Below are positions 13,224 to 41,690 of a stretch of DNA of 64,000 nucleotides, piece after piece. A program made the position numbers and the translations under genes. This DNA is from Amoebophrya sp. A120. Lineage: Eukaryota; Protista; Dinoflagellata. The stretch covers positions 481,643 through 545,642 of the forward strand of contig CAJINV010000001.1 in NCBI GenBank assembly GCA_905178155.1, read 5' to 3'. Every line of letters starts with the position of its first letter. Positions within the stretch are counted from its first letter, which is position 1. Below the pieces are notes generated by a model. It ran no database searches. It saw nothing but the letters and a program-made list of their open reading frames with translations, and was not told the DNA's origin.

Positions 13224-14151
13224 GTTCAAAAGAGACCAAGACGATCACTTACTCTAATATCTGACTCCACGTGCTGAGATCTTAATTCTGTAAAGAAAAA
13301 GCACTCCGCTCTCACGCTCACTTTGAGCGGTATTGTAGTTCACTCGTCTAGTAGCTCAGCGATACCAGGAAAAACAAGGCTGTGTTCAAGTGTAACGAGA
13401 ACAGTCAGCACCATCTGCGCGGCAGACACCCACACTGATCTTCATTTTTGGCGTCCCTTCCGGTTCTGTGACTGTATCTGCATGAGCAGCCTTGCCTTTT
13501 CCTTGCTCCTCTGAGAGCTACAATGTACAAATCTTCCGCCTTGTGACGTTTCTACGAATTTCGGTTTCAGTTGCAAAAATTCTGCGTCCGTGCAGCTGAT
13601 GGCTGGTCACACACGATAACAAAAGAATCTTTGGTACATTGAGAAAGGACAAGAACATTAATTTTGGAAAGCATACATCAAAAGCTAAAGCGGTGATAGT
13701 AGCTAGCTAAATCTAAGATTCATTTACATTAGTGAAGAAGAAGATAACTACAGCTGTTCTATTTTTGCATCAACTGTGGTACTGTCAAAAGCTTCAGATA
13801 TTTCATTTTTCAAGAATCGATTGTACAAACCCTGGCTCTGTCTCCAGGAAATTCAATGCAGGTCCAATGTGACACTCGACGACAAATTGATTCAAATTGT
13901 TTAATTTCCGTATTGTACATGGAGATAACGTTTTTTTTTCTGACCTTCCTCCATTCCCCCGAATAACGAAAGCAAATCACATGATGTGCAACGCCTCGAA
14001 GGCCTGTAGAGTGAGAGTTTGAATGTCAAAGTCGAAAATTTCTTGGATGCGTTGACACAACATCATGCCTGAATCATTCGTTGTTCTATTCTTGACATTG
14101 CATGCTCAAAAAACCTGAGGGTCATGATCAGATGAAGACAAAAGTATTCAT

Positions 14152-16957: not shown

Positions 16958-19900
16958 TTATTGATGCTTCCAGCGGTTCCAATCCCCAATCGCGGCGTTA
17001 AACCAGCCGTCCCAGCGGGTGCGCAGTGCCAAGTTGAAAGCGAAGCCGACCCGCGTGACCGTGCTGTTTTCGTGCGGAGGCACCTGGTGGATGAGCCAAC
17101 TCGGAAAGCACAGCACGTCGCCCTTCTCGGGGAAGATGTAGTAGGGCTGATGGAAGGGCGCGTTTCCCTGCCACCCGTAGGCGTTCACCGCGTTCCCGTA
17201 CCGCTCGTAGTCATGCATCACGTTCCGCTATCAACTGCAAATATGTCTGGGTCTGGAAGGATTGCAGCATTGTCATGCAGGTTTTCGATGACCCACGAGG
17301 TCTGGAATGCAGTACCTAGCATGACATCGGTGGTCTACGGGCAGGCTGTCCCGGTGGCGCTTTGGCCAATCGTACAGAGAAAAAACAAAAAATACAAGTT
17401 AGGTAGGAATACAATTGAAGGTTATGAATGAAGTCAAAAGTCGTAGAGACAGTATTAAAGTAGTTCCTACGGGCATGGTCACGATTGGGCAACAGAGGGT
17501 AGAGTCACGATTGGGCAACAGAGGGTAGAGCAACGAATTGTTACGCATCTATCCGCTGGTCAAGTACGAGGAAAACGAGAGCAGCATCGAAGAAGGGAAA
17601 GGCGCGCAAGCAAGGCAGCCCAGCAGCAGCAAAAATATCAAGACAAGAAGCAGACTACCGCCACCCGGGGTCCTACCCGACCGAGAACTGTACTGGTATG
17701 GGCCAACATACCATAAAAGGTACAGAAGAAGGGTAGGTGCTCGCGTAAAGAGAAAGATGACCAAACCTACAGCGCCCGAGGGTGCATGCTCACCACTGTA
17801 GGATAATCTCTTTACCGTCTGCCAGCGGACAAGCCACTGAAAAACAAGGCAGTGCAAAGTAAACAACCAGGTTGGAGCCAGCAGGCCAACCGCAACAAGA
17901 CCGCGAAGATGACAAATTCTGTGAGATGATCTCTATCATGCCTATTCCCTCTCAACTTGGTAAAAAATGTTGGCAATCATGCAACACAGACTCTTTGCGT
18001 GATTCAGATTTAGCATGACAAGTTGCAACCTTCCAGACATCCAGGGATTTTTGCAGGCCATATCCGCCCCCGCGGGTCCATCAGAGCGATGGGCGTCTTG
18101 TATCCTGTGTAAAATATACGTCCTCCCGCCCCAGCACACTTGTCGTGCATCAAATTCAAAGCGGCAGGCCTAAATAAATGTTTCGCATGCGCAGGGGCCG
18201 CCCCATGAGAGCCATTTTCTGATGTTATCTGGAAAGTTGTGATGAAGCTGGAATCAAGATAAGGTAGACGATTTGTGATATCACGTCTGCACAACTATCT
18301 ACCTCAAACAGCACTATATTACGAGTTCAAAAAAACTTGTCATGCGCGACAGCAAAAACTTGTGCCAATTTGCGTAGCCAAATCCGCATCTTGTATCTTG
18401 ACTATTGGGTCGTCGCGGGGACGTTCAATAGTTTACTCAGGATATCTTGGTCGGGTCCGTCACGGCGTACAGGACGCAGCTGACGATGCTGTCCTGGTGC
18501 GCGTGCGGGTTGTGCCGCCCGCCCTGCTTCGGGTACACCTGCACCCAGGCAAAGGGGTCGTACGGCTGCACCTTCTTCGCGTCGGCGAGCGTGTTTTTTT
18601 GCTCCTGAAAACTCCTCATCAGTTGCTTCTCCCGGTACAGCTTCACCGCCTTCGGGCTTCTCGGCACCTTAGTTTCGTCGGAATCCGACTCGGAGTCGGT
18701 CTTTTTGCTCTTCGCTGGTACTCCCGCCGTCCTGTTTGTTCCACCGAGCGAACCGCCAGTTGTAGTAGTATCACGGTCCTCTTTCGGTTGAAACATCGCC
18801 GCCTTTTTGTTCAGCACCTGCTCGATGTCGACGCCCAATCCGGTCCGCGCAAACTCGATGGCCACGCGCTCGATCGCGGCTACCATTTTGGTCAGAGCCT
18901 TGCCACGCTTCCCCCGGTACATCTCTTTCCACACCTTGGCCTTGCGGTACAGGTCCGGGTCTTTGACCTGCAGGCCGAAAAAGTAGTCGTTCAGCTCCGC
19001 CAAGTTTTTCGCACCACCGCTGTCGTCGGCCGCCGAGGAGGACGAGGAACTGCTGCCCTCGTTGCCCTCAAACTTCTTCCGCTCGTCCTGTTCGTATTTC
19101 TGGTACTTTTGCCGCAGCTCCCGCCGACTCAACTTGGAACTCCCGGTTTTGTTGCTCACGATCTCCTATGCGTTGCAAATATATTTTCTGGGTCGTCTGG
19201 AAAGTTCTGATGCAAGTCTGCGACTGCTGGACTCACTTGAATGTACAGCCACGCATCAAAAAATTTTGAGCTGCTATGGTTCTCGCGTAATCCCTATGGC
19301 AAGCTAGGTTTTTGCATGACAGGCAAGAGGTGCTCGTTTTCGTGCACATGCAGTTGTACAGACCTCACGGTCATCATGCCAGACAAGCATGACAGATCCG
19401 GCATTTCCGTTTGTCGTCCAGAGCCAGACATTATATTTGCAGTTCATATCTCCTCCAGGTTGTGGTCGTCGGCAATCTCCTCGTATTTCGCGATCGCTTC
19501 CCGGGCCAGGTCGTCGATCACCTCCTCGGAATATCCTGTGCAAAAGTATCGTACTCGTACAACTACAAATGCGAGTCTTATTCTTAAGGTAAATCTGCAT
19601 TACAAGTTTTATCGCTCATACTGAGGGAATTTCTAATGCATTTATACGAGTACGATACTTTTGCAATGCATACGGAAATGTCCTCGTCGATGATGTTTTC
19701 AATCCCAATGTTGGTCGGGAAAATCTGCGCCACCTGCATTTGGTTACTGAGAGAAGTAGTCACACCGCTTGTAGTTCTCGTGTCCGGTTCTTGATCTTGA
19801 TCTTCACTCCCTGCTGTCAACATCTTCTTGCCGCTGCTAGTGCTAGAGGACTTCTGCTGTTCGATGTCATTTCCTGCAGTTGCTCCTGCTGCGCCGGATG

Positions 19901-22900
19901 TAGCAGTCGCACTCTCCTCCTCCGAGGAGGACGCAGATGCCGTGGCTTTCTTTTTCTTTTTGCTCTTCTTGTCTTTCTTCCCCTTCTTCGATTTTTTTTC
20001 CGTCTTCTCCTCAATTTGGTCCTGCGATGCAGCCGGGAGCAGGGAAAGCTGCAGCAGATTTTTGTTCGCGGTTGTGATGAAGGAGCGCTCGGCCATGTGG
20101 TCCGCCACGAAAAAATCTGCTAAAGTCCACCGTTGACTCGCTTTGTTGATTTTTGGCAGCATCAACACTGAAAAGTCCGGCTTGCTCGGCCACATTTTGG
20201 TGTCGTCGTCCTTCGAATCTTTTACTACTTTCGACGCCAGGGAGTTCATCATCTTCTCCCCGCATGAAGATTCTTCATCCGGGTCGTCGTCGTCTGCGCT
20301 GCATTTATTGTTCGGGGCGATTTCATCGCTGCCACGACCTGTTTTTGAGGACAGCACTTTCGTACAGGACAAAACCTGCGACTGTGCCCCGCCCTTCTCG
20401 ATGCGTTTTTTCACCACCTTCATGGCCCCGCGGAGCCACCGGATCCCCCGAACCGGTCCGAAACCCTGGTTGAACAGCCGCGCGTACAAATACAAGTTGC
20501 ACTCGACCCGGTTCGCCCGAGACTGCAGGATGTGCCAGGCGAGTTTGTGGGGGTTCCCAACGGCCTTTTTGCCCATCTCGTCTCGCTATGAAATGCAAAT
20601 ATGTCTGGGTCTGGAAGATTCTAAACTTGTGATGCTGTGTCTGGATTCTAAAAAAATTTGTATTGCATGATCTTATTTACCCCTCAACCACTATACCCCC
20701 TTTACGACCACTACCTCAGGGCAGGATCTCGGGGGGATGGGGTCAAGCTCTAACGGGGGTCGGACCCGAGTGAAACCGTTAGAGTGGCTGCATGTCCTGG
20801 TCGAATCCGGAAATTCCATGAGCAAGGTATCGTTTCCAATGGTAAACCAGGCAAACACGACGAACAGACAAAGACGAGGGACATGGGCAGAGCAAAGGGA
20901 TAGCTCGCTGGGGTCTCCTGCAGCTGAAAAATAACGTCGCGATGCGACTGGACTGGGGTCTCCAGCAGTCCACCAAAAAGCCCTATTGCAATGGCCGGGA
21001 TAGGGACCCCACCTAGGACTACGCACGACAGGCCACGAAGAGACGATGCCGAGGAGACACAGCGACGCTCCGCTCCGCTCGACGCGACAAAGCAGCAACC
21101 GCACCGCTCGTCGAGGATCGCTCCACCCCCGCGCCAAACCCCCACGAACGACGCCAGGACGACAGAAAGACGACCGCGAGCCATAAACAACTCCCCTACG
21201 AGTAAACACCCCTCACTCGTCTATCCAGCTGGTAAGCACCGTTCAGTACTCTGTGAGACGCGGGGCTGGCGACCCGAACTCCCGCACCGTAATCAACCCG
21301 CCATCCATCGCCACCACCACCTCCGCGCAGCTTGGATCCGCAAAGCCCAGCCGCATCGAAAACGTCGCACCTCGCAGGAGTAACGAGCCGCACAAACGCG
21401 CTGCCAGCGCAGCTACCACGCAAAACCTGAGGTCAATCATATGGAAAGGGGTTACCATAAGGCTACGTAAGGGTCAGAGGACAATCCGCTGCCACAACAC
21501 AGACCAAAGGATTAGGAGGGGCGACAACCACAAACGAAGAAAAAAAAGGAAATATGGGTCTGGTACTATGATCTTATCATAAGTATTCATGTGAGTGGGT
21601 GAGAGTGTGAGACAAACGAAAAACAATAAATAAAAAGTCCCTGAATTTGTATTGCATGACCAGCAATAGGACTCCAGTTTGTGCTACTCGGAGAAGACAT
21701 TTCTCATGCGGTGGAGGCATCACAAAGCCAGCGAAAAATCTGTGATGCTAGAGCATGCATCACAGACATCATGGGCCATTCAAAATATGCATGACAACAA
21801 TGGCAATCTTGCAGACCCAGACATTTTTGCAGTTGATACTCGCGCTTTTGCCACCACGAACTCCGGGTCCGCGAACAGCCCCACTTGCTTCGACACCACC
21901 GCTATCAACTGCAAAAGTGTCTGGGTCTGGACCTTTGCGCGACTTGTCATGCCGGTTTTCCATGACCCATATGATCTGTAATGGAGGACCTAGCATAACA
22001 GATTCCGTGAGATCACTATCATGCCTATCCTGCATGAGAAACTGCCTCCCAACTTCAACAAAAGTGGACAGCATTTGGTAATCATGCAACACAGATTTTT
22101 GCGTGATTCAGATTTAGCATGACAAGTTCCAACGTTCGAGACCCAGACATATTTGATTTGATAACCTCCGCCGCACTGTCCCGCTTCTTTCGGTTGTCGC
22201 CAACTAAAGAACCGGGCTTCAGCTTCCGCTCCGCAGCCGCGTCCTTGGCGGGGTCCTGTTTCGTCCGGGCCCAGGTGCTGAACACCCGGTGCGTGTGTTC
22301 TTGCGCGTAGGGCTCCAAACAGTGCTCCGGCTGCTTCCGCATTTCGCGGCCCGCGTCCGGGCCGATGTCTTTCCCGTACGAGTCCTCGGCGTCCCCCTCC
22401 TGGATCAGGCTCAACCGCTTATCAAAAGCAAAAATCCCTCCTCCCCATATCGAAAAGGTATGTTTCCGAAAATTTGCGTTGCTGATTTGAGGTCGCAAAT
22501 CACATTTGTATTGCAAGAAGACAAGGGCAGAAGCTTCCGCCCCACTATGGGAGCGATTTGCCATGCTGTTGGCCCTAAAAGTGACCCGCTTGCCATGCTG
22601 AACAACTAGACCCATTCGCCCCTACCTAGCCTGGGGATTTGGCCGCAGTGCCTCTCTGCAATACAAACCTGATTTGATGTGTACACAAATCCAGCATCAG
22701 AAATTCCGTTTTGATATGGGGAGGGGGGATTTTTCCTTTCGATACCGCTCCTCGATCGCCTTCAGATCGCTCAAATACTTTTGCCGCTCCTGTTTCGCCG
22801 TCAATTTCACTTCGTGTTTCTCCGCGACTTCTGCTTCCTCGTGTTTGGCGTTCGTAGTTGTACTTGATGCTGGTGAAACCACCGTCGCCTGCAATAGCTT

Positions 22901-24221
22901 CTCCTCGCTGGCTTGGAGTCCGCAGGAGCTGGCGAACGCCTTCTGCACGTACAGTTCGAAGCCCTTCTGCAAAAACGCGATGCCCCCCTCGATCTGCAGA
23001 AAGGGTTTTTCGTCCGTCCACGCCGAGGTGAGCCAAAGCTCCCCCACGCGGAGCCACAGCTCCGGGTTCGTCAGGTCGAAGTCCAAGGCACCGAACATCT
23101 GGCTCCTATCAAGTGCAAAAATGTCTGGGTCTGGAAGAGTGCAAACTTGTGATGCGCATTTCAGAACACAGAAAAATCTCCCATGCATAGGCAGCAAAAG
23201 TTCCCACTTTCTGTCACCAGAGTCAGGGATTTGTCATGCGGATTCGGCATTGCGGAGGCTTCTCGAAATCTGTGATGCTAGAGCTTCCATGCCAGACCTT
23301 CTGTGTCATGCAGAAGCAGCATGACTCTTCCAGACCCAGACATCTTTACAGACATGCAAGAGTTTGTCATGCATCTCCCGGATCACGCTACTGGTCAGGT
23401 CTCCAATGCACGCAAAAGCATTACAGGTTCTGCGCAGGCCTCCTGATGTCTAAGTCTATCCCGCATGAGAAATAATTCCCTATTTGCGTAGCAAGAAATG
23501 GGAAGGTTTTGGTGCTATATGCAACACAACTTTTTGCCTGTTCCAGAAATCGCATGACAAGTTCCAGTTCTTGTTCCAGACCCAGACATATTTGCATTTG
23601 ATAGTTCCGGGCCTCAAACAGTTTGGCGAATGGGTCCTCCTGCACGACGTCGCGCCTTATCGAATGCAAAAATGTCTGGGTCGGGAAGAGTGCCGGACTT
23701 GTCATACAGGTTTTTCATGACCCATGAGGTCTGGCATGGAGGGCATAGCATGACAGATTCCGTGAGAGTTCTATCATGCCTGTCCTGCATGAGAGACTGC
23801 CTCTCGATTAGGTCAAAAGTGGACAGCTTTTGGTAATCACGCAACACAGATTTTTACATGATTCAGATGTAGCATGAGAAGTTGCTTTTTTCCAGACCCA
23901 GACATTTTTGCATTTGATACGACCCATTTTCTGCCGGTAGGAGTCGGGGAGTCGGTCCAAGGCCTTCCGCAAGTAGAAAGGCGCGATCTTCTGCGACCAC
24001 TGTTTCACCCAGGTGACGCGCTGGCTCTCCAAGGCCTCCGCCGTGGCGGGGACCTGCAGGGGGTTCGCCGAGGTGGTGTTCTGCTGCGCCGCCAGCACCG
24101 TCTCCTCCGCGTTCGGGTGGATACGCCACGTGTTGCCCAGAAGCCGCCCATCCTGCGCAAACGACACGCGGACGAAGCAACAGAAGAAAAGGGCAGATGA
24201 CATTCGGAGAAATGACCTCAT
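16958..24221 (-). CDS. Secreted multidomain protein with C-terminal TIGR02466/2OG-FeII_Oxy_5-like oxygenase, paralog 1 (about 1006 aa, 9 introners)
   Basis: Signal-like MRSFLRMSSALFFCCFVRVSFA; motifs AWVQVY..HNPHAHQDSIVSCVLY, LMDPRG, GDVLCFPSWLIHQVPPH..RVGFAFNL. Span minus (elements plus one DR each) = 3021 nt, a whole number of codons. Confidence 0.85.
17327..17908. mobile_element. Unknown nested insertion with 6-bp TSD ATGACA
   Basis: ATGACA at 17321-17326 and 17909-17914; the host sequence resumes directly after the second copy. Confidence 0.8.
17478..17529. repeat. Perfect 26-nt tandem duplication GTCACGATTGGGCAACAGAGGGTAGA
   Basis: Two adjacent identical copies. Confidence 0.95.
18101..18444. 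mobile_element. Introner, family C-like (diverged)
   Basis: TATCCTGTGTAAA..ACGTCC / GGACGT..TTTACTCAGGATA; DR TCTTG. Confidence 0.88.
19167..19448. mobile_element. Introner family A (diverged)
   Basis: Degenerate family A TIRs; DR TCTCC. Confidence 0.88.
19532..19672. mobile_element. Introner family B (141 bp)
   Basis: Family B TIRs; DR CGGAA. Confidence 0.92.
20587..21838. mobile_element. Introner family A with a nested 973-bp insertion
   Basis: DR CTCGC; the two halves are collinear with 29143-29408. Confidence 0.9.
20671..21643. mobile_element. Unknown nested insertion with 16-bp TSD (retroposon-like)
   Basis: AATTTGTATTGCATGA at 20655-20670 and 21644-21659; no TIR; A-rich right end. 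Confidence 0.88.
21903..22163. mobile_element. Introner family A
   Basis: Family A TIRs; DR ACCGC/ACCTC. Confidence 0.88.
22420..22744. mobile_element. Introner family D
   Basis: Family D TIRs; DR CCGCT. Confidence 0.93.
23107..23603. mobile_element. Composite double-length family A introner (497 bp)
   Basis: DR GCTCC/GTTCC; internal TIR remnant CTTCCAGACCCAGACATCTTTACA at about 23327-23350. Confidence 0.85.
23658..23919. mobile_element. Introner family A
   Basis: Family A TIRs; DR degenerate (CGCCT/CGACC); removal restores the frame. Confidence 0.86.
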
Positions 24222-24858
24222 GGACGATGAGATATAAACGTGCTTATGCGACGACGAGGAAGAGGAAACCATTTTCATAATACAGTAGCAATTTTTTTTT
24301 CGACAGGAAATACTGAGAGTTGAAAAAATCGCTGTTTGGGGTGAATCTTGAGAAAAAAAACCTGACTAATCTGTGAGTGAAAAGGCAAACAACAGCCTTA
24401 TTAAAGAACTATCGAGAAAACTCCGATCATTCCATGCTCGTCAAACAATCTTGTGCCCCGTAGGGCGGTACTACTTAAGCGCGACAACTTTTCTTTTGGC
24501 CCACGACGATATTGATCTAGTTACAACACAGCTGCATCTTCTGAAGGAATTTTCCCAATTATCCCACTTCGGACGAAAGAAGGACGTTGGCACAAGCGCT
24601 TCCACCTTCGAGACGATCTGCTATAATTTCATCTCTGTTTAAACGCAAACGTTGAGTAGTAAACTGTTCTTTCTTGGAATTAAATCATAGTGGTCCCTGT
24701 AAACGTCGCAGAAATTATCCTGAGCTACTTTGGATCCACAGACTTTTGCTGTGCCCCGACGAGTCGATGGGAGAGCAGTTCTTCTGTGACGTATTATACC
24801 TAGCAGCAAAAATGTAGTTCGTTCTACTGATTGACACGAAAATTTTCTGTACTTCGCC

Positions 24859-27800
24859 TCAGATTTTCGCTGGGCTGGTGCCCATGGCATTGTAGAACCA
24901 GTTGTCGAGGCGGGAGGTCATGGTGAGCAGAAACGCGATGCCCACCCGCTCCACGTCGCTCTCCTCGTGCGGCGGCACCATGTGCACGAGCCAGCTGGGA
25001 AAGCAGACCACGTCGCCCTTCTTCGGGAAGTAGAAGTAGGGCTGGTGAAAGGGTGCGCTCGGCTGCCATCCGTGGATAAAGGGCTTCGCCGGCTGGTCCC
25101 CCATAGCATCGTACTGGGCCCACACCGATTTGCCCCGCGGGTCCAGAATCGACAGCGGCGTACGCGTATCAACTGCAAAAGTGTCTGGGTCTAGAAAATT
25201 GGATTTGGAACTTGTAATGCTAGCTTTACATTCCTGGGAAACGTGTATTGCATAACCGACAAAAGCCGCAGCCCTTTTTGTCATTTCATTTCATTTCATT
25301 GAGTCTCTCATGCGGACTGCCTATGAGAAAGCGCTCCGGAAAGTTGTCATACTGGGCTGCATTTGGAAGCCTTTCCATCATGCACATTTTAGCATCACAA
25401 GTTTCCAGACCCAGCCATTTTTGCAATGCATAACGCGCCGGGTCGGTCGTCAGGTAAAACACGCAGCTGACGATGCTGTCCGTGTGGGTGTGCGCCTCGT
25501 GGTGCCCCCCGGCTTTGCTGTAGACCTGCAGCAACGCGTACGGGATGTAGGCCTGCCGCCTCTCCTGGTCGAACCGGCTTTCCGACTGGTACTGCAGAAA
25601 GGCCTGACCCGGGTTGGCGAATTTCCTTTTCTTCTTCAGCGCGACGGAGGAGGAACTCGTTTTCCTCTTCGCATCCACTTTCTTGGAGTTCAAAGTACTA
25701 CCCCCTCCGTTCGCGGCTTGCCACTCGTCGTCGTGCGCATCCCGATCTATCACAGGAAAAAAGTGTTATAGTTACACACTCGTTGGAGTTTCTGCATCAC
25801 AAAGTTGCTCGACATGGCTAAGAAAACCTGTGATGCAAAGACTGTAAGGGAAAACAGGAATGAAATGAGGCTGGCAAGCATAATCTGCATGACAGATGTT
25901 GTCTGTCCTGCTTGTCTCCCATCTTCAGAGTGTGTAACTGTAACACTTTTTTCTCACGATACGATCTTCATCGTTCTCACTATCGCCGTCCCCCGTTGCG
26001 CCCCGGTCTTCGAAGGCGAGCGGCATCAGAGGCTCGTCGTCCTATCAAATGCAAATATGTCTGGGTCTGGAAGAATGCAGGAGTATGTCATGCAGATTTT
26101 GCATGACCCATGAGGTCTGTGATGCATGCCCTACCATCAGAGATGCTGTGAGGGCTTTCTAATGCTCATACCGCCTGAGAAATGCCCTCTCCGTGTAGCA
26201 CAAATTGCACCTCTTTTTCTGTTCATGCAATACAGATTTCATGTAGAGTCCAAAGGTAGCATCGCAAGTTGCATCCTTCCCGACCCAGACATATTTGCAA
26301 CGCATACGTCCTCGTCGTCTTCAATTTCAATCTGTTCTATCCTGAGTAAAAACGTACCCACACCAGAGTTGTAATGCAGATTTGCAAAGACAGGAAGACT
26401 TGTAATGCGCATCCCCATGAGAGCCATGCCCAGTCGTGTTTTGGAATGTGTGATGCTGTGAACAGGATGAGCAGATGAATCTGTGACGCGGCTGCACTTG
26501 CTAACCTGCACTACCCTGCAGAGCGCAACTTGTCATGCGTGACTCACAAAACTCCTAGGTTTGTGTTGCAAAATCCCCATCCTAACTCTGGTGTGGGTAC
26601 GTTTTTACTCAGGATATGTTCGACGTCCTCCTCCTCGCCGTCTGCAGCAGCTTCCCCCGTTTTGTTTCCGAAAAATTCGTTCCGGAAAGAATCCCCGAAA
26701 CTAGCGTCGTCGCTATGCATTGCAAATATGTCTGGGTCTCCTGGAAACTTGTGATGCAAGTCCGTGAACAATAAGTGCTCTGTAATGCGCCGCCAAGCAT
26801 GACAAGTTTTTTGTTTTTCGTGATTCTGTGATGCGCCTTTCGCATGAGCAACTGCGCTTTTGCATGACAGGCAAGAGGACCTCTTGGTGGCCACGCGGCA
26901 ATACAGAGTGCACAGACCACGTGCCAGACTGGCATGACAAATCTCGCAATCTTCCAGACCCAGACATATTTGCACTTGATAGTCGCCGCCGCGAAACAAG
27001 GAGGACTGTTTGTTGAAATACCGCTCCAGGTCGATGCCCAGAACGTTGCCCGCAAACCCCAGCGCCACCGACTCAAGGGCGGCGACCACGCTGGTCATTT
27101 CGCGCGCACGGTCGCCGCGGTAGAGCGAAATCCACTTTTTGTTGGTCGCGTACTGCCGCGGGTGCGTGCTCTGAACCGAGTAGAACCGCCCCTTCACGTG
27201 GTCGTCCATGTCTGCGGCCGTGATTTTTTGCTTGGTTTTGGTCTTCTCTTTGATCAGCTTCTTTTCCTTCTTCGCTACCTTGCGGTACTTGGTCACCGCT
27301 AGGTCCCGCAAATTATCGATGACTTCTTCCGATACCTTGGTCCCCATAATGTTCTGTACCGCGACGTTTGTCGCAAAAATTTGCATGATCTGCATCTTCT
27401 TCTTCTTGGAAGTTCTTGCACTACTTGTTTGCGCTTTCTCTAGTACAACTTCGCTGCTCGTTGCAGTGCTGCTGGTGGCCTTTACTTCCTTTATTTTTGC
27501 AGTCGTTGTAGTTTTAGGTGCTTGTTCTACTTTCCCTGATTTCTTTTTTGCATTTTTCTTACTGCTTGCTGCTGTTTTTGTACCAGTAGCAGTCTTCTCG
27601 TCATCAACTGCCTCCCCTGCCTCCTTCCCCGCGACTGTCGACGTCCCTCGCCTCGCTAGTTCGCGGTCGACTAAGGTACGTCCTGAAAACTTTTCCAAGA
27701 TTCCCGTCGTGACAAAGTCGGAGTTGTGGAAGGCCAGGTGGTCGGGGGGCGAGAGCCGCACCAGTCCGAGCGCCGCCTTCTGTACGCAATAGAAAAACTT

Positions 27801-30504: not shown

Positions 30505-31037
30505 CTTTTTCCGAGTCACTATATTGATACAGATACTGTTACCGAGACACGACTTTTTCTTCAAATACAAAACTTAGTTTTACTAATCCATCTTTCCGGC
30601 CCAGCTGTTGTACGTGGAAGGATCTGTCACATTGCACCTGGACCTGTATTCTCCTTCTGTGTTTACTTCTGTTCGAGAAATCAGCCACCTACCAAACGCT
30701 ATTTAGGCAGAAACCGATCTTCCCGGCTGCAACGATGAGCGCAACAAGATTTTTGGCAACTGTATGAAAAACGAACATACGTACATATTTATAATTCCTA
30801 ACATGTATTTCTGTTTTGCTGTTCCTTCACTTTTTTCGAGGGACGAGATGCAAAGGCCAACAGATGTAAGTAGCAATAAACACGATCAAGGCACAATCTT
30901 ATCTCTTCACATGTTTTTCGTATCCACAACCACAGCTCGTTTTTTTTGCAAAAAATGATGACACAACGCAAAAAATCTTTCAGTTTCAACACATACTCTT
31001 TCAACAGAACTTAAACTGATTCTTAATGATACTCCCC

Positions 31038-34000
31038 TCATGCCACGGCCGCCGCACCGTGAAACCAGTGGTCAATGCGATTGGGCGCCATCAGCAGAAA
31101 AGCGATTCCCACCCGGTAGCCCGTTTCCTTCCCGTGTGGCGGCACCTGGTGCACGAGCCACGAGGGAAAGCAGACCACGTCCCCCCTCTTATGGAACTGT
31201 CAGGATCGAAATCGACAAAGTTGAAATGATTTGCCATGCATAAAATGGATGCCATTTGTAACCCAGTTTCCAAGTGGCGCATGACAAAATTGGGTTGTAG
31301 AGCCGAAATCCAGTTTGTCATGCTGGTTGGGAAGGTAGGACAACTTTTGTCATGCTACTTTAGCAGCTCCACTTCCACCCCTCAACAGGCTTACAATCTG
31401 TCTCAATTGCCTACTCTGCAACACAGGCACTTTGTCGGTTGCATTTTATGCATGAAAAATCATTTCGACTCTGTCGATTTCGATCCTGACACTCCCATAC
31501 TTCTTCGGAAAAACGTAATACGGCTGGTGGAACGGCGCGTTCGGCTGCCAGCCCGCGTTGAATGGCACTGCCGGAGATTTCTTGTTGTTCTCCTTGTAAT
31601 CGAAGAAAACGCCAGGCTGTCCTGTGGCAAAAAGCTATAGCAACTGCACATCCAAGGACTAGGACGATGAAGTACCGCATGTTTCAATCACAACAACTTG
31701 TAGTAGTTGTACCATCCGCGTGCTTGTGAGTGCTTACTGTGTCTATGGATACAACTGCGCCTATGGATACAACTGCGCCTATGGATACAACTGCGCTCTT
31801 TCTGTGTTAATGTGCATCTACTTCAACTATCGCATTTATACGCAGACTTTGTATACTTACGTACAAGAACCGTGCTCTGCTAAGCTATTTCCCCGCTGAT
31901 ATCTTTCCGCGCGGGTCCAGAAAAATCAACGGCGTCTCCATTCCGTCGCTTCTCAAGTAAACCGCACAGCTGACAATGCCGGAATGGTGCGTGTGCACCG
32001 GGTGCTGCCCATCTTTATCCGCGACCAGGGTCCAGTGAAAAGAAATGTAGGGCTGCCGCCGTCTCGGGTCGAAAAGCGTCCGTTCTTGGAACTCCATAAA
32101 CTCCTGGACTAAATCGGACCTGCCGCGTACTTATCAACTGCAAATATGTCTGGGTCTGGAAATTCGTGATGCTGAAATGTGCATTAGTGAAATACTTCCC
32201 AATGAAGCCAAGCATGACAAGTTTTCCGGACACTTTCTCATGCGCAGTCCGCATGAGAATAAACTGCCCTTTTGTATAACAAAGGAGGTGTCGTTTTGTT
32301 AGTCATGCAATACAGATTTTACAGCAACGTAGGACTAGCATCACAAGTTCAATGTTTCCAGACCCAGACATTTTTGCAATCCATAGTGCTTCATTTTCTG
32401 TTCTTTCGGGTTGAAACAGAGACAACTGGTTCAAAGACGTCACGGTGGACCGGCTGCGGTTTGTATTCTATCTTGTGCAAAAGTATCGTACTCGTACTAA
32501 TTGCTTTTATGCATTACAAATCTTTTTCCTAAGGCAGAACCGCATTACAAACTTAATTTGTAATGTTAAGGAAATTTGTAATGCAATTTTTTTTTTTCCT
32601 AGGCTCCTAGCGTGTCGGTTTTGCGCTGTTCTTGCTTTTCTTTCTTTTGATTTTCTTTTCATTTTTTTTTGATTTTTTGATTTATTTTGTCATCTTGTGC
32701 TGATTATTTTCTTGTCCTGTGTTGTTCTTTTTCTCTTTATCATTTTCTTTTCATTTTTTTTTAATTTCTTTTGCGCTTTGTTTGATTTTTCTTTTTCTTT
32801 CTTTTGTTATCGACACGCTGAGAGCGGGGGGCGTTTCACGAAGAAGAGCGCGGGTATACTCGGCGTTCCCGTGGCCATTGGCCCTACCTTTTTGATATTC
32901 TCCGCGGCGAATCCTCGCGGGGTGGCACCGTCGCGTCCTTGGCAATCGATCTCTGTGCAAGCCCCTTCTGCTTCCCTCCTCCAGGCTTAGGCCTCCCCTG
33001 AGCAGTAACAGAACCTCTTTCTCCTCCAGACGTAGACGCGGCAATGTACACCATGACCATACGAAGCAGGCCTCGTAGAGGCAACGCGCAACATGACATC
33101 ACGAGCTGAACAATCCTCATTTTCATTTTTTGTTTCTATAATTCCTAACGCAGCTATGACGGTGTGCTTCTTAGTAAGGCAAGCACATATCAATCTAAAA
33201 GCCGAGGCAATGCATTTGTGAAATAGCGCCTAAAGCTTACACTTACTACACTTCCTACACACGCACACACATACGCTTTTATCTTCTTCGCTTACTCTGT
33301 TACTTTTATCATGCTCTACTCCATGTCAATATCTGATAAATTAATTACTCTACTTTTCTGCTCTCCGCACCTGAAGCGGGCGGTCCCTGTTTTTCCTGTT
33401 GCTTTTTGTGTTGAGACGCTCACCAAGTGGTCTACGAACATTTCCAATACTACATCTGACGACTGCGGTCATCGTTTCACCCGCTACGACTTCAAACGAC
33501 TTCCTTTCATTCCGACGAGCAACGAGGCTGAAGCGAGAACGATAGACGAAAAAATTTGAAGTACCAGGTCCCTGTCTTACTTTACTTCAACTTTCTTTCT
33601 TCTTCCAGGGGACTAGGCGACAAAGCCACGCACTATGTACAAGGTTATTCTAGGGCGCTGTTTGGTACAAGTATAGATTCTAATTTTTCAGCAGCGAGCG
33701 GCAAAGTCACCAAGATCTGGCAGTGGGGTTCCCTCTTTGAAGTCATCGCGGGATGCGCGGCAGGGACCTGTTTGATTAATTTTTTGTGATTATGAATATA
33801 CTTTTTGCTTCATCTTCATGTTATGAATAACTGCCTTGCTACTTCATAAATAAGTGTAAGTCGACATATTTTTAGAAAAAGTGACAAATCAGCATTACAA
33901 ATTGATGATAAGTATAAAAACGAGATCAACTCTCGCGCGTGACCTTCTTCATAGGGCGCGCTCTTTCGACCTGCCCTGTGCACTGTGTTGCCCGAATACA

Positions 34001-37000
34001 AGGGCTCGCCGGAACAGTAAGACAGAAAATAGCCTCAGGGCTAAACTCGTGCCTCCGCCCCAGCCCGGCGGCTAAGTAAAGAAAGAGACAGGGATCTACT
34101 TAGAGGGACAGCTCTTCTCCCGGCTCCAGCAGTCCGTGAGCTGCGCTGTAGCTAATATCTAATGCCTCGTGGCGCTCAGGCTCACAGAAGCCGACAGTGC
34201 ACAATAAAAACAAAAAGCAGGCCTGTAGTACTCGCTACAATAATACCATCCTACCCTCAGCCCGATGCTGTGGTGAAGAGAGGCCGGAGGCGACTCCTAC
34301 TAAGCCCGACCAGTATGGCATCCCGCGCAGCGATGCCAGACCATGCCCAGTCGACGAGTAAGAGGGCGCAGTCAGTATGGCGCCAGAGGACGAAGCAAAA
34401 CAGCGAAGACCAACAGGACGCAACCCTCTCAACACCTAGGCCTGCTCCCCCGGCCGAGGTATCACGATCTCGCAGTACATTCTTTTAGGCAGAAATCCTC
34501 TACCCGCAGCGCCAACAACTACGCTCTTTACTGCTACCCCCGCATTACAGTCTTTAAGAATTCCGCTGCAATATGTCTACACAAACACATCCAAACTTGA
34601 GACATTCTCCTATGTTGAGCCGCAAAATTACTATACCTGGTATCTTCATTCATCTTGACCTATTCCGTCTTCGTTCTCAGCCCCACTCGTGGTTGTTGAT
34701 TTCGTTTTTCTTTTTGTTGCAAGCATTTCTCGAGTTGTTTGTTTTTTCACTTGTGATGAATGCGCTCCTGTAGTTTAGATTTTTTGAAGTTTTTCATTTT
34801 TTTCAATTCATACTATCTGCCACTGCTTATCATCTTCTCCTGGTGAGATATTTCGCTGGAATCTTATCTGTAAAAACAAAACTGCCTGCCATTGCATCCA
34901 TTTTCTCATATGAGTTTGGTAGTTTCTCATGTTGCTTTGCTGCCTTTTCAATTGTAGATCCTATTTTTTCAATGCAGTTCCCCACCCTTTCTCGAAAGAA
35001 GTCATGGGTTAGCTTTGCTTCTTCATCTACGACAAACCCCAACACCCTCCTCGGGTTTCTCAAAAGCTCCCGGCCTATAGTAGGCGGGCAGCTCTCAAAA
35101 CCAAAGTGGCGCACGCGCGGCTTTTTTACCTCCGGACACTCAAAGAGAATATGATCAACACCACACTGGTGGGCCTTCAGGCATTTGCTGCGTTTTTGTT
35201 GCATTTTTCCATCGACAAAAAGAATCTCGCCACAGCCAAGATGAGGCTGAGGCGCGATCCCCAACCAAATCCAAAAGTAGAGCAGTTCCGACCCCCGGTT
35301 GGGAAAGACCCCTACGGGCGGTCTGAACCCCCCCAGAGACTTCGCGCGCTCGCGCAAGTACTCCGAGGCAGAGGAGCTCTTTTCGAGATTTTCAGCCAAT
35401 ATTCTTTTCAAAAGTAGGCGCCGCAGAATAGGCGCCGTAATCATCTTTTTATAGATCGGCCGCTCTGCTTCATCGCTGTAGTCCTGCACCCCATCACCCC
35501 ACATCTCCTTGTAGATGTTCGTGAGGTGATCCGCGCAGTCGTTGGCTATTTGGCCGCAGTGCCCCGGTGTCCACCTGAAGTGAAACCATACCTCTTCCTC
35601 TTCGTTCGGTTTCTCCCCTATGCAGGCGGCTTGTATTTGCTCCATGTGCTTCATTATGCAGTGGATCATCTCGTTGCTGCTATCGTTAAAGCACTCCAGT
35701 GCCTGCACTATGCTGTTGCTGTCCAGGAAAAAGTAAAAACGCCGAAGCATGTGCTTGATGTGTGGGCTAGTCCTAATCTTCTGCTCTATTTCTTTTAGTT
35801 GCTGTATCAGACCAATGCACTCCGCATCAAAGGAATCTGTTTGCACATCTTCTAATGGTGCGCAGATATATGCCCCAGATATCCAAACTGGGTCCGGAAA
35901 GCTGCCTTCTCCTGGCTGCTTCCGTTTGTAGTTCACCCGTGCCTCCGTCCCCAACGGGCTCCCACCACCAACTCGCCCCCGCCCCCACGCCCAGATTGCG
36001 ATCCTTATCCACTAGTCCATCCGTAGCTGATACCAGATTCCCCTGCGACTTCCTTAGAAGCCCCCGCACCAGTGCATTATGTGCTTTCGCGACTACTCTT
36101 CTCGCTTTCCCTAACTCCTCGCCCTTCAGCCCGGAAAGTTGTCCCAAGCCCATGTCCTCCCCTATCCTGTCCATCGGCCTGGCATCTAGGTTCACCCCCC
36201 TCCAGAAGATCTTTCCTATGTAGAGCCGGTTTGTGCTAAAATGACTATGAACATCTGCAAAATTCTTCTTCGACATATGCCTAGTCGTATCTGTCCACGC
36301 GACATGCTTCCCATCCATGCCTAGCAAGAACTTTACTGGGTCGCTGTCATCTTCTTTTTCAAAAACTTTCTTTACATCCTCGCAGGGCGCTTTTTCTAGT
36401 GGCCAGAGATCCAGCTGCGCACCTTTGTAGTAGAGCATCAAGTTCTCTACTACAAAGAGCGAGTGGATATCTGGTATGCCTGCACAATGATGCAAAATCG
36501 TACTTGGTGTCTGCTTCGGCAGCATTGCATGGCCCTTCAAATATTTCGAGGTGTCTTTTTTTCGTTGCAACTTGTTCTGCTTCTTGAAATACTGAAAAAA
36601 AGGCACGCTGTTCGACAATATCGCGCTATATATTAGTGAGACATAGACATCTATTCGCGCTGTCAGGCGTAAGTTTTTGAGGCGGGCTACGCTTGAGTTT
36701 TCTTGTGTCATCTTTTTCCTCATTATTTCATAGTGCGAGGAAAAGTGCCAAGTCCCATCATAGAAAAAGCCAAGGGATCTGCTTGCGTCATTGACTTCTA
36801 CCTTTTTGTCCACCCCTACATCATAAAAAACCGCTTCGGACTTAGTTTCCTCGAAAAAGATAAGTTTCTCCCTCCCCGTACGCACCAGGTCCTTTTTTAG
36901 CTTTGTCACTTCTTCCATGTCCCCTATCCCACACTGGCTATTATCATCGGAGTACTGTGCTTGACTTCCGTCTTCATTTAGCACTGCCGTCTTCTTTACC

Positions 37001-40000
37001 AGCGGGGTATTGTGGATATTGAAGCAGCCCCCCGAGAAGGGGCTGCCTTGTGGCATACCCGGGGACAGATGCCAGTATCTGTCCCCGGTCTTGATTCTGA
37101 CGGTTCTAAAACTAAGCCACTGCACAGTGGCAGCAGCTAGATCTTCCGGGACCCCTAACTCATGCATAGTCTCCAGCAGTTTTTGATGTGAGACAACATC
37201 AAAACCTGCCTCATTGTCGTTCAAAAGTAAGAACTTCCTCATGCCTTTTGTATTCATTCCTTCCGGTGAAAATAAATACTCAAGTATCGAAATTGCGCCA
37301 AATTCTTTGCAGAAGTTCTTTCTGTATGCAAGCGAGAAGAGGGGTAGTTGTGGTTTTGCATTTTCAATCCGTTTAGCCCCATTCCACTGATATCCCTCCA
37401 GCCAAAGGCAGAGCCTTCGGTCCTGTATCACCTCCCACACCTTCGCATAAACTGATAACAGGGAAACTGGCCGGAACAGGCTCTCCGTGTAGGGTTGCCC
37501 TTCGGTTTTCCCGACCGGGGCAAGGATAATCTCCCTCCCTATTTTAGGGAATTCGTTGTATTTGATTAAAACATAATAACACCTGTAGAGACACTCCCAC
37601 CCTGTTCCCGTCAATGCTTTCACCAACTCGTGCGTGACCCCGTCCCTCCCTGGGCTCTTGTTGCATTCCAGTTTTCGTATAGCCGCCGCAAACTCCGTTC
37701 GCGTCAGCTCCCAAAAGTCGCCCGCCTCTGCTTTAGCGTGCGAGCGGTCCCTAGCGTCCTTGCAGGCCTTTTCCTTCCACTCGCTTTCGTCCGGTACAAG
37801 AAAACCATTCTTCGTGTACACCTGGTCCGGTCTACCCTTGTACTGGGCCGCGAAGTAGTTTACTACATCTCCATGCGTAGCTGTAGCTTCCCCGGGTATC
37901 GGCTCGGCCGTGAGCTTCTTCTTTTTGATTGCCTTCAGCGCTGCTTCATTCTTACGCTTTTCAATCACTTCTACTGTGAGCGGCGGGCACAACTTGCAAT
38001 TTATACTAGTACGATGCTTTTGCAATGCATATATTCGACGTGTCGGCCATGATGTTCGTCGTCCCGCTACTGCTCGACTCCGCCTCGGGAACCAGCCCAA
38101 ATTTTTCCGCCCGAAACAGGCTTGCCTTTTTGTTCAGCACCGTTTCGTATCAACTGCAAATATGTCTGGGTCTGGAAGAATGCTAGTTCGTCATGCTTGT
38201 CTGGCATGACTTGAGAATCTGTGTTGCATAGGCACGAAAAGTCCCCCTTACCTGATATACAAAAACGCAGCTTGCCATGCGGAATACGTAACATTCGGCA
38301 GCCAAAAAATTTGTCTTGCATAGCTGCGTTTTGCAGTGCGTCTATCATTCGCTTTTAGCACTACAAGTTTCCAGACCCAGACATATTTGCAATTCATATT
38401 TCGACGTCCATGCCCAAGACCTGGTCCGCAACCTGAATCGCGACGGCCTCGACGTAGGCTATGGAAGCGTCAGGTTTGAAATCGACAAAGTTGAAATGAT
38501 TTGTAATGCACAAAATGCGACACAGAGACTGACTCTATTGCAGAGGACGCAAGGGAGGCTGATTCTAGTACTGGTAAGGGTGAGGAATTGGGTTGCTGAC
38601 TAGCATGACAGGGAGGAGCCATCTTGCTCTAAACAGCATGACAGACTTCCTTCAGAGGCCAGGAAAATTTGTCATGCGCCGATTGGAAACTGTGCTGGGT
38701 CCAACTGGTATAGATTTTACGCATTGCAAACTATTTCAACTTTGACGATTTCAAACCTGACACATCCATATAGGCGAGCAGCTGGGTAAAGACGCGGCTG
38801 CGGGGGCCCTGGTACATGGACTTCCACTTCTTTCCCTCCGCCTTGCCGGAAAAAAACCGCGGATTGTTTTGCTGCGCCTGCCAGAACTTCTGTGTCACCA
38901 AAAGTGTCGACGGGGCTGCAGCGGGTGGAGTAGATTTGATATCTTGTTCAACATCACTGTCTTTATTTGTCTTCTTCTTCTTTTTGGAGGAATCACCTTT
39001 CGCAGCTTTAGCGTCCTCTTTCGCCTGTTGCTTCTTCTGGACCTGCTTTCTCGCTTTCTTGTACTTCGCTACAGCAGTGTCCGCGAGGTCATCAATCGTT
39101 TCTTCCGAGAAAAAACCCTGGGCGAGCAAATTTTGCACCGCTATTTTCGTCGGAAACACCTGCGAAATCCGAAGCTTTTTCTTCTGGTGCACCGGTTTTT
39201 TGCTACTTGCCTTGTCAGCGGAAGATGGGAGTGGAGCTGTTGAAGATGGGCTATGAACCGCTGCATGAGGACCTGCGCTGGCGGCAATGTCGCCATTTTC
39301 TTCTTTTTTCAGGACCTTCGCATTTATTTTCGCTTCAGAAGAGGAAGACTCCTTTACCTCCTGCTCGTTGATCATGTTCTTGGAACTTTTAGGTTTCACA
39401 TTTTCATCCTTCTTTTCGTCGTTCATCACATGCGCTTTTTCATCACTTCTTGCAGCGTTATCGGACAGGAAGAGAAAATCCGACAGCTCGACATCTACGT
39501 TCTTATTCTTCGCTTTTCGGAGTCGCGGCAGCGCAAGCAAATCCCGCTGCCGCGTCAATTCTTCACATTTTAATATTTTCATGTTGCTACGAACTCCATC
39601 GTTAGCTGGTCTTTCAGCAACTGAGGGTTCCTTCTTCTCCTTCGTTTTCTCTTCCTCAAACCGTTTCGCCACCTGCGTGAATGCCCACTTGAGCCACCAC
39701 ACCGCGCGGCCGGGTCCGAGTGCGGTCATGAACGAGTGCGCCAGCACGTGCAGATTGCACTCCACGCGGGCCACGTTCTGCGTCAGCACGTGCATCGCGA
39801 TTTCTTGGTTTGTCGCGTTGGCCTCCAGATTTTGGTCGTCGTTCCGCGCGTTCGCGAGCACCTTTTCCATGGAGGAGTAAAACCGGCCCTGCTGGGACAG
39901 GGGCCAGGTCAGGCTCTGCAGACTGTTGATGCCGTACCACTTTTTCAGCGGGTGCTTGTAGATCTCGCCCGGCCTCAAGTCCGCCAGTCTCCCCTGGAAG

Positions 40001-41690
40001 ATCACCCCCTGCCGTCGCGGCTGCTCCGTCCACGCGCTCTTGTCGGGGGCCTCCGTCTCGAAGGCCGGCAGGCTCTGGCAGTAGGGCGGCTGCTTGCCCA
40101 CAACGATGTCCGGGTAGCTTTTCTGCAGGTGCGGTCCGTACACGTCGACGGGCAGGTCGAAAGCCATGTTATCAAATGTAAAAGTGTCTGGGTCTGGAAG
40201 ATTGGCATTTGTGATGCTAACTTTGGACTCTAGAAAAATCTGTATTGCATGACCAGCAAGAGGAGTCTAGTTTGTGCTACGCGGGGAGGGCGTTTGTCAT
40301 GCGGAGTAGGCATCAGGAAGCCCGCTCAAAATCTGTGATGCGCGGTCGTGCATTACAGACATCCTGGATCATGCAAAACATGCATGACAAATCTCAGAAT
40401 CTTCCAGACCCAGACATTTTTACAATTCATACATGTCGTGCAAGGCGTAAATCTTCTCCTCGTCCTCCGTGCCGTACAGAGCGACGGAAGGGTTTTTTCT
40501 GGTGGATTGTGACATCAAAACAGCCAGAGAAGCTTCGGTGTTGTTGTTCACAGCGTCTTCCTGTTGCGTCGGATGCGACAAAGAAGAGGATGAAATTCCG
40601 CTTTTCCCGACGTGCATCTCCCGGTCGCAGTTCTTCAGAAAATCTTCATCTACTTCCGCGTCGAAGCTACCAGTTTTGATATTTTCGGTCGAATATTACA
40701 ATGAAAAATGCCCCCACCCCCGAACTTGGGAGCGTTTGCATTGCAAACCTTTCCAAGTGAAACACTCGCCCTCTTGCATCTATCAGCGTCACAGGTTTCC
40801 AATCGTGAATAGCAGAAATTTGTACTGCAAAAGACCCCAGCGATGGCGGCGCTTGTCATGCAAGCCATGCGATACACGCCTAGACTCTGCATCAGAAAGA
40901 TGCATACTCCTTTCATGCATGACAAAAAGTTTGCATTTGGATTAGGAAACTTCGCATCACAAATTTTTGCAACTTTGGGCGTGGGGGGCACTTTTCACTG
41001 TAATATCGAAAGTAGAATCCTTTCCGTGTACAGCTCGAAGCCTTTCCGCAGCATCGCAATGCCCAGTTCGACGCGGATCAGGGGGTCGTAGTACACGATC
41101 TCAGCCGACGTCAAAAACAGCTCCCCCACGCGGAACCACACTTCGGCACTGTTCACGTCCAGATCTAACGCGGCCAAGGCCTGGTTTTGCCACTCCATCA
41201 GCAGCGCGGGCGGGTCGTGCTTCTCCACCTCCTTGTTCACGCGCCGGACCCCCTTCTCCTTGATACCCAGCTCCGTGCCCTGGGGGCCCCACAGCACCAG
41301 CGCTTCCGCCAGCTGGTCCAGCGCGCGCCGCAGGTAGCCCGGGGCGGTCTTCGTGCTCCATTGCCGGATCCACTCTAGCCGGAGTTGCAGCAGCTCTTGT
41401 TCTGCGGATAGCGGGTGGGAATCCCTGCTTTCGTCTGGCTCTGGCTTTTTCAAAGTGGTCCCACTGATGCTGGTATCGTCTTCTTTGGCGAGATCATAAT
41501 TCTCGAGAAGCTTGTTTCGGGTAAGTTGTAGTTCTTGCTCTTCTTGATCCGTGTTGTCGTGGACCTGCCACGTACTTCCCAGCATGCGGAACGGCTGCAC
41601 CGGGGGAGCGGCAAGAACGCCGGCCTGCACATTGACGAGAGGCAGGACATTGACGAGTGGAGCTACGAAAAAAAACGAAGGGCATCTCAT
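31038..41690 (-). CDS. Secreted TIGR02466-like 2OG-Fe(II) oxygenase protein, paralog 3 (about 1021 aa, 8 introners, one holding a LINE)
   Basis: N-terminus MRCPSFFFVAPLVNVLPLVNVQAG; motifs HPVHTHHSGIVSCAVY, IFLDPRG, GDVVCFPSWLVHQVPPH..RVGIAF; spliced length 3066 nt, a whole number of codons. Confidence 0.82.
31190..31499. mobile_element. Introner family H
   Basis: TIR TATGG.A.TGTCAGGATCGAAATCGACA.AGT.GAAATGATTT; DR CCTCT/CTTCT. Confidence 0.9.
31618..31901. mobile_element. Highly degenerate introner with no recognisable DR
   Basis: Weak TIR TGTCCTGTGGCAAAAAGCTATAGCA vs TGCTAAGCTATTTCCCCGCTGATA; removing 31613-31901 gives DPRGKSVFFDY, matching paralog 2 DPRGKSVWAQY. Confidence 0.65.
31743..31796. 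repeat. Three perfect tandem copies of 18-nt CTATGGATACAACTGCGC
   Basis: Read directly from the sequence. Confidence 0.95.
32132..32385. mobile_element. Introner family A
   Basis: Family A TIRs; DR GTACT/GTGCT. Confidence 0.9.
32590..37994 (-). mobile_element. 5'-truncated non-LTR retrotransposon (RT, RNase H, C-terminal Cys/His motif)
   Basis: TSD TGCAATTT (32582-32589 and 37995-38002); poly(A) tail (T run to 32597); RT and RNase H motifs; no endonuclease domain retained. Confidence 0.93.
34830..37994 (-). pseudogene. LINE pol ORF (RT-RNase H), 5'-truncated, with a 1-nt frameshift near 35950
   Basis: RT motifs KSPGRDG, FRPVSLL..AKVWE, GMPQGSPFSG, YSDD. RNase H starts as ATDG in one frame and continues as AE..DS..WTPGH....ND.AD in another; C-terminal DHILFECP. 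Confidence 0.88.
38148..38398. mobile_element. Introner family A
   Basis: Family A TIRs; DR TTTCG. Confidence 0.92.
38460..38770. mobile_element. Introner family H (inverted relative to 31190-31499)
   Basis: Family H TIRs; DR TAGGC. Confidence 0.9.
40170..40431. mobile_element. Introner family A
   Basis: Family A TIRs; DR CATGT. Confidence 0.93.
40694..41005. mobile_element. Introner, family D-like
   Basis: TATTACAATGAAAAATGCCCCC / GGGGGGCACTTTTCACTGTAATA; DR TCGAA. Confidence 0.9.

Follow-up and report, generated by a model that had tools for sequence, protein, structure and literature searches.

Near-coincident introner positions in three tandem oxygenase paralogs of Amoebophrya sp. A120

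The window studied here is a stretch of 64,000 nucleotides (nt) from the dinoflagellate Amoebophrya sp. A120 (contig CAJINV010000001.1, positions 481,643 to 545,642 of the forward strand), and all coordinates below are positions within it. It contains three tandem minus-strand genes, P1, P2 and P3, which are 2OG-Fe(II) oxygenase-domain paralogs. All 27 introns of the trio are introners, i.e. elements with TAT...ATA inverted repeats and 5-nt direct repeats. Three pairs of unrelated introners lie within 0-2 nt of each other at homologous sites of different paralogs, and a fourth pair does so less certainly. The genes, with protein lengths in amino acids (aa), are:

16958-24278, minus strand: P1, annotated protein P0003, 1025 aa, C-terminal PF13759, 9 introners
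24859-30504, minus strand: P2, annotated protein P0001, 988 aa, C-terminal PF13759, 10 introners
31038-41690, minus strand: P3, annotated protein P0002, 1021 aa, C-terminal PF13759, 8 introners

PF13759 is a putative 2OG-Fe(II) oxygenase domain. When each element is excised together with one 5-nt repeat copy, open frames of 1006 aa (P1), 988 aa (P2) and 1021 aa (P3) are obtained. The P1 frame matches P0003 at 100%, with the annotated start being 19 aa longer; the P2 frame shows 0 differences from P0001, and the P3 frame differs from P0002 at one of 1021 residues, located at the junction of the element starting at 31618. The 27 elements were thus correctly placed in the first-pass annotation, as both the open frames and the annotated proteins agree with its coordinates. 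The paralogs are only distantly similar, with pairwise identities of 28-31%, and their four-fold degenerate sites are near saturation (0.41-0.49 identical versus 0.37-0.38 expected). In a tree of 28 domain sequences the trio forms a clade with the topology (P1,(P2,P3)) and supports of 96/95 and 100/96. A fourth A120 member of the same protein family, P0005 (721 aa), is found outside the window.

The elements are not new: Farhat et al. 2021 (PMC7789003) described them as the introner elements of A120. The passages of that paper on A120 introners report inverted repeats that open with TAT and continue with about seven variable bases and a run of A, together with direct repeats of 3-5 nt spanning the exon-intron borders. 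The likeness extends to the organism, the TAT repeats, the 5-nt direct repeats, the many families and a length of ~250 nt. In the trio the inverted ends are ~30 nt long, and the terminal pattern of TAT, seven variable nt and an A run is present, being degenerate in the elements starting at 27783 and 31618. Direct repeats are perfect in 19 of the 27 elements, carry 1-2 mismatches in seven, and have been lost completely in one (31618-31901). Families A, C and D and some smaller ones are represented among the 39 elements of the window, and all of them share the TAT...ATA ends and the 5-nt repeats.

The elements proposed to be paired across the paralogs are:

17229-18062: pair 1, in P1, family A interrupted by ~550 nt of foreign DNA, perfect 5-nt direct repeat
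31618-31901: pair 1, in P3, old degenerate introner with a weak inverted repeat, direct repeat gone (0/5 match)
18101-18444: pair 2, in P1, C-like introner, perfect direct repeat
25167-25432: pair 2, in P2, family A, perfect direct repeat with a sequence unlike that of 18101-18444
23107-23603: pair 3, in P1, two fused family-A elements within one direct-repeat pair (4/5 match)
29736-30059: pair 3, in P2, family D, perfect direct repeat
29143-29408: pair 4, in P2, family A, direct repeat 4/5
40170-40431: pair 4, in P3, family A, same subfamily and orientation as 29143-29408

It had been claimed from manual alignment that four pairs, or eight of the 27 elements, coincide within 0-2 nt. Our observation confirms this in part, with three firm pairs and one uncertain one. 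In four MAFFT modes the offsets of pairs 1, 2, 3 and 4 are 0, 1, 2 and 1 nt. With three parameter sets, a pair hidden Markov model gives pairs 1-3 a posterior of 1.0, but the register of pair 4 only 0.30-0.44. This pair adjoins an alignment gap (P2 LDHHLLDMAEDMYG versus P3 LHDMAFDLPVDVYG), and a rival register that aligns the common L-D-M-A residues places the two sites ~13 nt apart. Formal alignment therefore keeps pairs 1-3 together and leaves the register of pair 4 uncertain, so that firmly paired elements number six of 27, not eight. The family-D element 22420-22744 of P1 has a posterior of 0.31-0.50 for lying at the P2 site of pair 4, and site 4 could be a triple that includes it. A fifth pair, seen in a single MAFFT mode, was discarded as it falls in an unalignable stretch.

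The pairs were also said to join different families with different direct repeats. This is true of pairs 1-3 as far as families are concerned: their members are unrelated, with scores of 24, 31 and 51 and ranks of 6-37 out of 38. In particular, the score of 24 between 17229-18062 and 31618-31901 is what shuffled sequences give (mean 23), as had been proposed, and 31618-31901 has no relative among the other window elements. It does not hold for pair 4, whose members belong to one subfamily and are identical at 218 of 260 positions; among 38 elements 40170-40431 is the top match of 29143-29408. As to the direct repeats, those of pair 2 do differ, while in pair 1 the comparison fails since 31618-31901 has none.

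Splicing was assessed on transcript-like contigs from runs X3 and X4, which represent one sample and which we guess to be RNA. At all 13 listed joints, 10 of 10 in P2 and three of eight in P3, the element plus 5 nt is skipped. For P1, a contig from X4 shows the predicted spacing of the long exons (716, 79 and 33 nt). Contigs from run X1 read through the elements, and from the raw RNA run X9 only 59 reads aligned, 57 of them in part. The joint of 31618-31901 is unambiguous (31613-31903), so that the intron is 31614-31902, in phase 0 after DPRGK, with the ends AT..CT; the intron at 31190 can be read as GT..AG.

At five junctions between 27778 and 32390 the two repeat copies differ, which makes the cut position informative. 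The permitted cut is after repeat position 4 only (31618), 4-5 (31190), 3-5 (27783 and 32132) or 2-5 (29143). A single register fits all five: the intron would run, on the sense strand, from 1 nt before TAT to 4 nt after ATA. This is consistent with the annotated N in the P1 sequence FEARNQ, and it also agrees with the commonest intron ends given for A120 in the passages on splice sites (GT, CT, AT and TT; PMC7789003), all of which have T in second place. Where the repeat is NNAGG, as in 31190-31499, the same register gives a canonical GT-AG intron. By this cut rule the junction of 17229-18062 would be in phase 0 after DPRGR. Further, the rule means that offsets between junctions equal offsets between elements, and it would render an offset test between paralogs unambiguous. 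In the passages of Farhat et al. (PMC7789003) that deal with splicing the splice position relative to the hairpin is left open, whereas here five junctions fit one register. An alternative acceptor, TAG formed by ATA and a repeat G, is ruled out by the X3/X4 junctions.

The direct repeats are gene-specific, each copying the present sequence of its own gene. Among the eight paired elements five have perfect repeats and two have one mismatch. Together with the near-saturated four-fold sites, such gene-specific and mostly intact repeats indicate that the insertions post-date the divergence of the paralogs. The element 31618-31901, with its repeat lost, is the exception and may be old. Descent of each pair from a single insertion before the duplications, with later divergence past recognition and sliding by 1-2 nt, is the least probable explanation that we consider. 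It is helped by the age of 31618-31901, by the intronic repeat copies of this element, which match the P1 repeat at 3/5 positions and its own exon at 0/5 (~0.12 by chance, an estimate), and by the common subfamily of the pair 4 elements. Against it stand the five perfect gene-specific repeats and the clear membership of the paired elements in different families that are active elsewhere in the window. The 84% identity of pair 4 is too high, given that silent sites of P2 and P3 are near saturation. In addition, in every one of pairs 1-3 the partner of the P1 element lies in just one of the two sister genes, P2 or P3, so that models with an ancestral intron need three precise losses.

We favour, with about even confidence, a reading in which the paired introns are parallel gains, inserted independently into already diverged paralogs, and in which landing within 0-2 nt is the tail of a nearly random insertion process with mild bias, noticed post hoc. 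The elements would be mobilised by a transposase-type mechanism with a 5-nt staggered cut, and if each carries its own splice position, as the five junctions suggest, almost any coding site would be tolerated. Mild biases, i.e. towards alignable blocks, G at repeat position 1 and phase 0, would lift the expected number of pairs only from 0.35 to 0.57.

Several results weigh against this reading. We tested 242 cross-paralog element pairs for offsets of at most 2 nt against uniform, GC-weighted, alignable-only, target-motif, phase and local-jitter nulls (GC denoting guanine-cytosine content). Five placement nulls expect 0.35-0.52 pairs, with p-values of 0.0005-0.0024 for four pairs, and jitter nulls that preserve regional clustering give p-values of 0.0005-0.003. 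The alignment-weighted count, which includes a weight of 0.31-0.50 for 22420-22744, is 3.7-4.0 versus 0.35 expected (p ~0.0002). Correction for the choice of threshold leaves p at 0.00025, the limit of 4,000 draws. The local excess is thus about tenfold and survives every null tried, and the signal is sharp: four pairs fall at 0-2 nt, and the 3-8 nt range is empty. The fused double element at 23107-23603, a single case, is a real hint of re-insertion at the same site.

When phase bias is combined with a weight matrix trained on the sites of the trio itself, the expectation is at most 0.57 and the p-values for four pairs are 0.0007-0.004. With the three firm pairs only, p is 0.006-0.02. An offset of exactly 0 is seen in a single pair (p 0.07-0.10), and wider limits of 15 and 30 nt reveal no excess. 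The earlier estimate of about 0.4 pairs at random is therefore borne out (0.35-0.52, and up to 0.57), and the permutation test on the offsets of the trio upholds the local excess under all nulls. The local coincidence is real and significant.

It should be kept in mind that the locus was chosen after the fact, for looking striking. A120 has 7,428 genes in families with a mean size of 3.6, which corresponds to ~2,000 gene families. The chance that one family is this extreme ranges from 0.02 (p 0.001, 20 families) to 0.98 (p 0.02, 200 families); the figure of 20-200 comparably intron-rich families is an assumption, guessed rather than counted, and this also counts against the favoured reading. 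Within the window no second introner-bearing paralog set was found, and a single trio of genes is too little to tell whether sites are truly reused or the draw was lucky.

The first-pass annotation had concluded that introners replace earlier introns or introners, or are guided to hot spots, rather than inserting at random. The local excess behind that conclusion is robust, but neither mechanism is shown. In three of the four pairs the offset is not zero, so that the two introns do not share one position, and no target motif is apparent. The only candidate for an earlier intron at any paired site is 23107-23603. It consists of two family-A elements that run in opposite directions and belong to different subfamilies. 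The first (23107-23350, 244 nt) is a near-complete element of the 40170/5893 subfamily, and the second (23351-23603) belongs to the 1937/28056 subfamily. Each half scores higher against another subfamily (199 and 165) than against its partner (129), and at the joint ~6 nt of the first element and ~29 nt of the second are lost. In this single case the structure would arise in one step if a second element had entered the same target and the central palindrome had then collapsed; two-template gap repair would give it as well.

This structure is what introner turnover might leave behind. An initial insertion would establish a position, further elements would preferentially enter at the direct repeat or end of the resident or no more than 1-2 nt away, and the older element would later be excised or deleted. 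The position would then persist with shifts of 0-2 nt across paralogs that are 30% identical, with sequence, family and target duplication renewed, and 23107-23603 would be an intermediate caught in the act. We consider such turnover unlikely, though with an appreciable chance of being correct. It accounts for offsets of 0-2 nt together with fresh perfect repeats and switched families; the double element joins two A-subfamily elements in one repeat pair with terminal losses as palindrome collapse predicts; and pair 1 combines an old repeat-less element and a young one at an identical junction. The ends of resident elements serve as insertion targets for P elements and IS30. However, there is one such case only, and the same chimera can be made by two-template gap repair or by insertion into an inverted repeat with subsequent slippage. 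The other three nested insertions (17229, 20587 and 32469) are internal and not at the ends, no other abutting elements occur among the 39 (the shortest exon is 26 nt), and turnover requires that the common ancestor of the three paralogs had an intron and that three precise losses followed. If true, it would explain in concrete terms how introns can seem to slide, and how intron positions come to be shared without deriving from ancestral sequences.

Alternatively, a common transposase could be drawn to the same few bases of each paralog by a feature of sequence or chromatin that protein conservation has preserved. The ends and repeat length common to all families fit such hot spots, as does the location of the three firm pairs in the best-conserved blocks, and in many species introners show a bias in GC and for predicted linkers. 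Still, we regard hot spots as improbable. The paralogs are merely 28-31% identical, even with a weight matrix fitted to these 27 sites the expectation rises only to 0.39-0.40, and a base-specific motif predicts an offset of 0 rather than 1-2. The motif common to pairs 1 and 2 occurs at five of the 27 sites versus a 12% background, and at none of the 12 other sites. Neither the trio sites nor the 12 other window sites yielded a target motif. At the first repeat position, G is seen at 15 of 27 trio sites versus three of 12 elsewhere in the window, and 13 of 27 trio sites are in phase 0; these biases change the expectation little. The motif of pairs 1 and 2, which lies upstream of them and resembles the family-A end, was rejected: it reflects conserved Asp-Pro codons and failed on the held-out sites (0/12).

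Parallel gains elsewhere lend hot spots some further support. In the passages of the Daphnia pulex study that treat intron gain (PMC4202315), 43 of 90 gains are parallel, and as here unrelated new introns share a site or lie within 10 bases of each other. By the Daphnia-type measure of identical sites or sites within 10 bases, pairs 1-3 qualify, and pair 4 has a posterior of 0.30-0.44 for its register; as to unrelated inserts or non-identical sites, pairs 1-3 are unrelated, and pair 4 is related with an offset of 1 or more. According to the same passages the Daphnia cases concern alleles of one gene in populations, whereas here the paralogs are 30% identical, and the Daphnia introns are not inverted-repeat elements of repeat families, unlike the A120 introners. 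For fungal introner-like elements (ILEs), the relevant passages of Collemare et al. 2015 (PMC4457414) report elements within 15 bp of the positions of other introns in homologous genes (three cases) and read them as parallel gain, not sliding. Fungal ILEs lack target duplications and inverted repeats and have canonical ends, unlike the A120 elements, and the comparison was made across species with a 15 bp window instead of between paralogs at 0-2 nt.

The fungal elements bear on one more explanation, namely that introners replaced ancestral canonical GT-AG introns at the paired positions. In the passages cited above, ILEs adjoin positions of regular introns in other species (PMC4457414). In the trio, the two junctions of pair 1 coincide exactly, in phase 0, and no canonical-type old intron is left, the introners accounting for 27 of 27. 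We nevertheless find replacement very unlikely in view of figures from the comparison of A25 and A120 orthologs, as given in the corresponding passages of Farhat et al. (PMC7789003). Shared intron positions are 98.6% canonical and make up 19.4% of the A120 introns, and A120-specific introns are 24.8% canonical. From these published percentages we calculate that non-canonical introns at positions shared with A25 amount to ~0.46% of the A120-specific non-canonical introns, versus ~0.15% by chance. This is at most about a threefold excess, for which GC/GA-AG introns (2.95% in A120) could account, and the figures thus speak against a routine exchange of ancestral canonical introns for introners. 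That comparison demands exact position and phase, and since direct repeats blur the junctions it may miss shifted cases; it is silent on hot spots and on turnover within A120, as the introner families of A25 differ. Regarding intron positions in relatives, none of the 107 candidates from a first metagenome scan was confirmed, and a second scan gave 70 loci, 63 distant and seven close, with unbroken matches on transcript-like contigs of 1.2-1.8 kb. No A25 ortholog was present among the 20 named matches of 150 listed, which does not show its absence.

Shared or near-shared intron positions are usually interpreted as inheritance or sliding. In the passages on intron positions Farhat et al. (PMC7789003) compare A25/A120 orthologs only, whereas we compare paralogs. 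Nested or merged introner elements are described for Micromonas (Verhelst et al. 2013, PMC3879977), where the passages concerned do not connect them with recurrent positions in paralogs. Gozashti et al. 2025 (PMC12130899) discuss A120 families, in passages from which the words "parallel" and "same position" are absent. In the literature searched, which lacks most subscription papers, there is no report of positional recurrence among Amoebophrya paralogs. With tens of thousands of introners in A120, whose insertions can be dated by their direct repeats, paralog families permit coincidences at 0-2 nt to be counted. Should the excess hold across the genome, it would put a figure on parallel gain and suggest that a transposase reuses sites; should it not, the trio would serve as a useful null.

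The remaining introners of the trio are:

19167-19448, 19532-19672, 20587-21838, 21903-22163, 22420-22744 and 23658-23919: other introners of P1
25748-25961, 26043-26306, 26338-26616, 26714-26981, 27783-28005, 28056-28327 and 28685-28937: other introners of P2
31190-31499, 32132-32385, 32469-38031, 38148-38398, 38460-38770 and 40694-41005: other introners of P3

The longest of these, 32469-38031, is a short introner with a 5.4-kb insert, and the annotated protein is nonetheless spliced across it. The insert holds a reverse-transcriptase-like frame (35830-38133, minus strand; RVT_1, E 1e-6, slightly below the Pfam cut-off). Foreign inserts are also found within family-A introners, at 20670-21644 and at about 17330-17910. 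The former is a repeat present elsewhere in the genome, as contigs with 3-4% differences align there.

Outside the trio, a long frame at 42244-46857 (1538 aa) has 0 introners and no Pfam match. In 55510-59309 there are five copies of a 78-nt motif, ~1 kb apart and adjoining a gap of 89 Ns; the motif contains a branch-point-like word, a pyrimidine tract and CAG, and has no Rfam match. The family-A end pattern had no match in the viral or prokaryote contigs searched. At about 49425-49750 there is a family-D-like element without the usual TAT/ATA ends, 60 nt from a family-A element. Twelve further introners of the same families lie in unrelated genes of the window, at 591-6160, 12673-14606 and 49813-61358.

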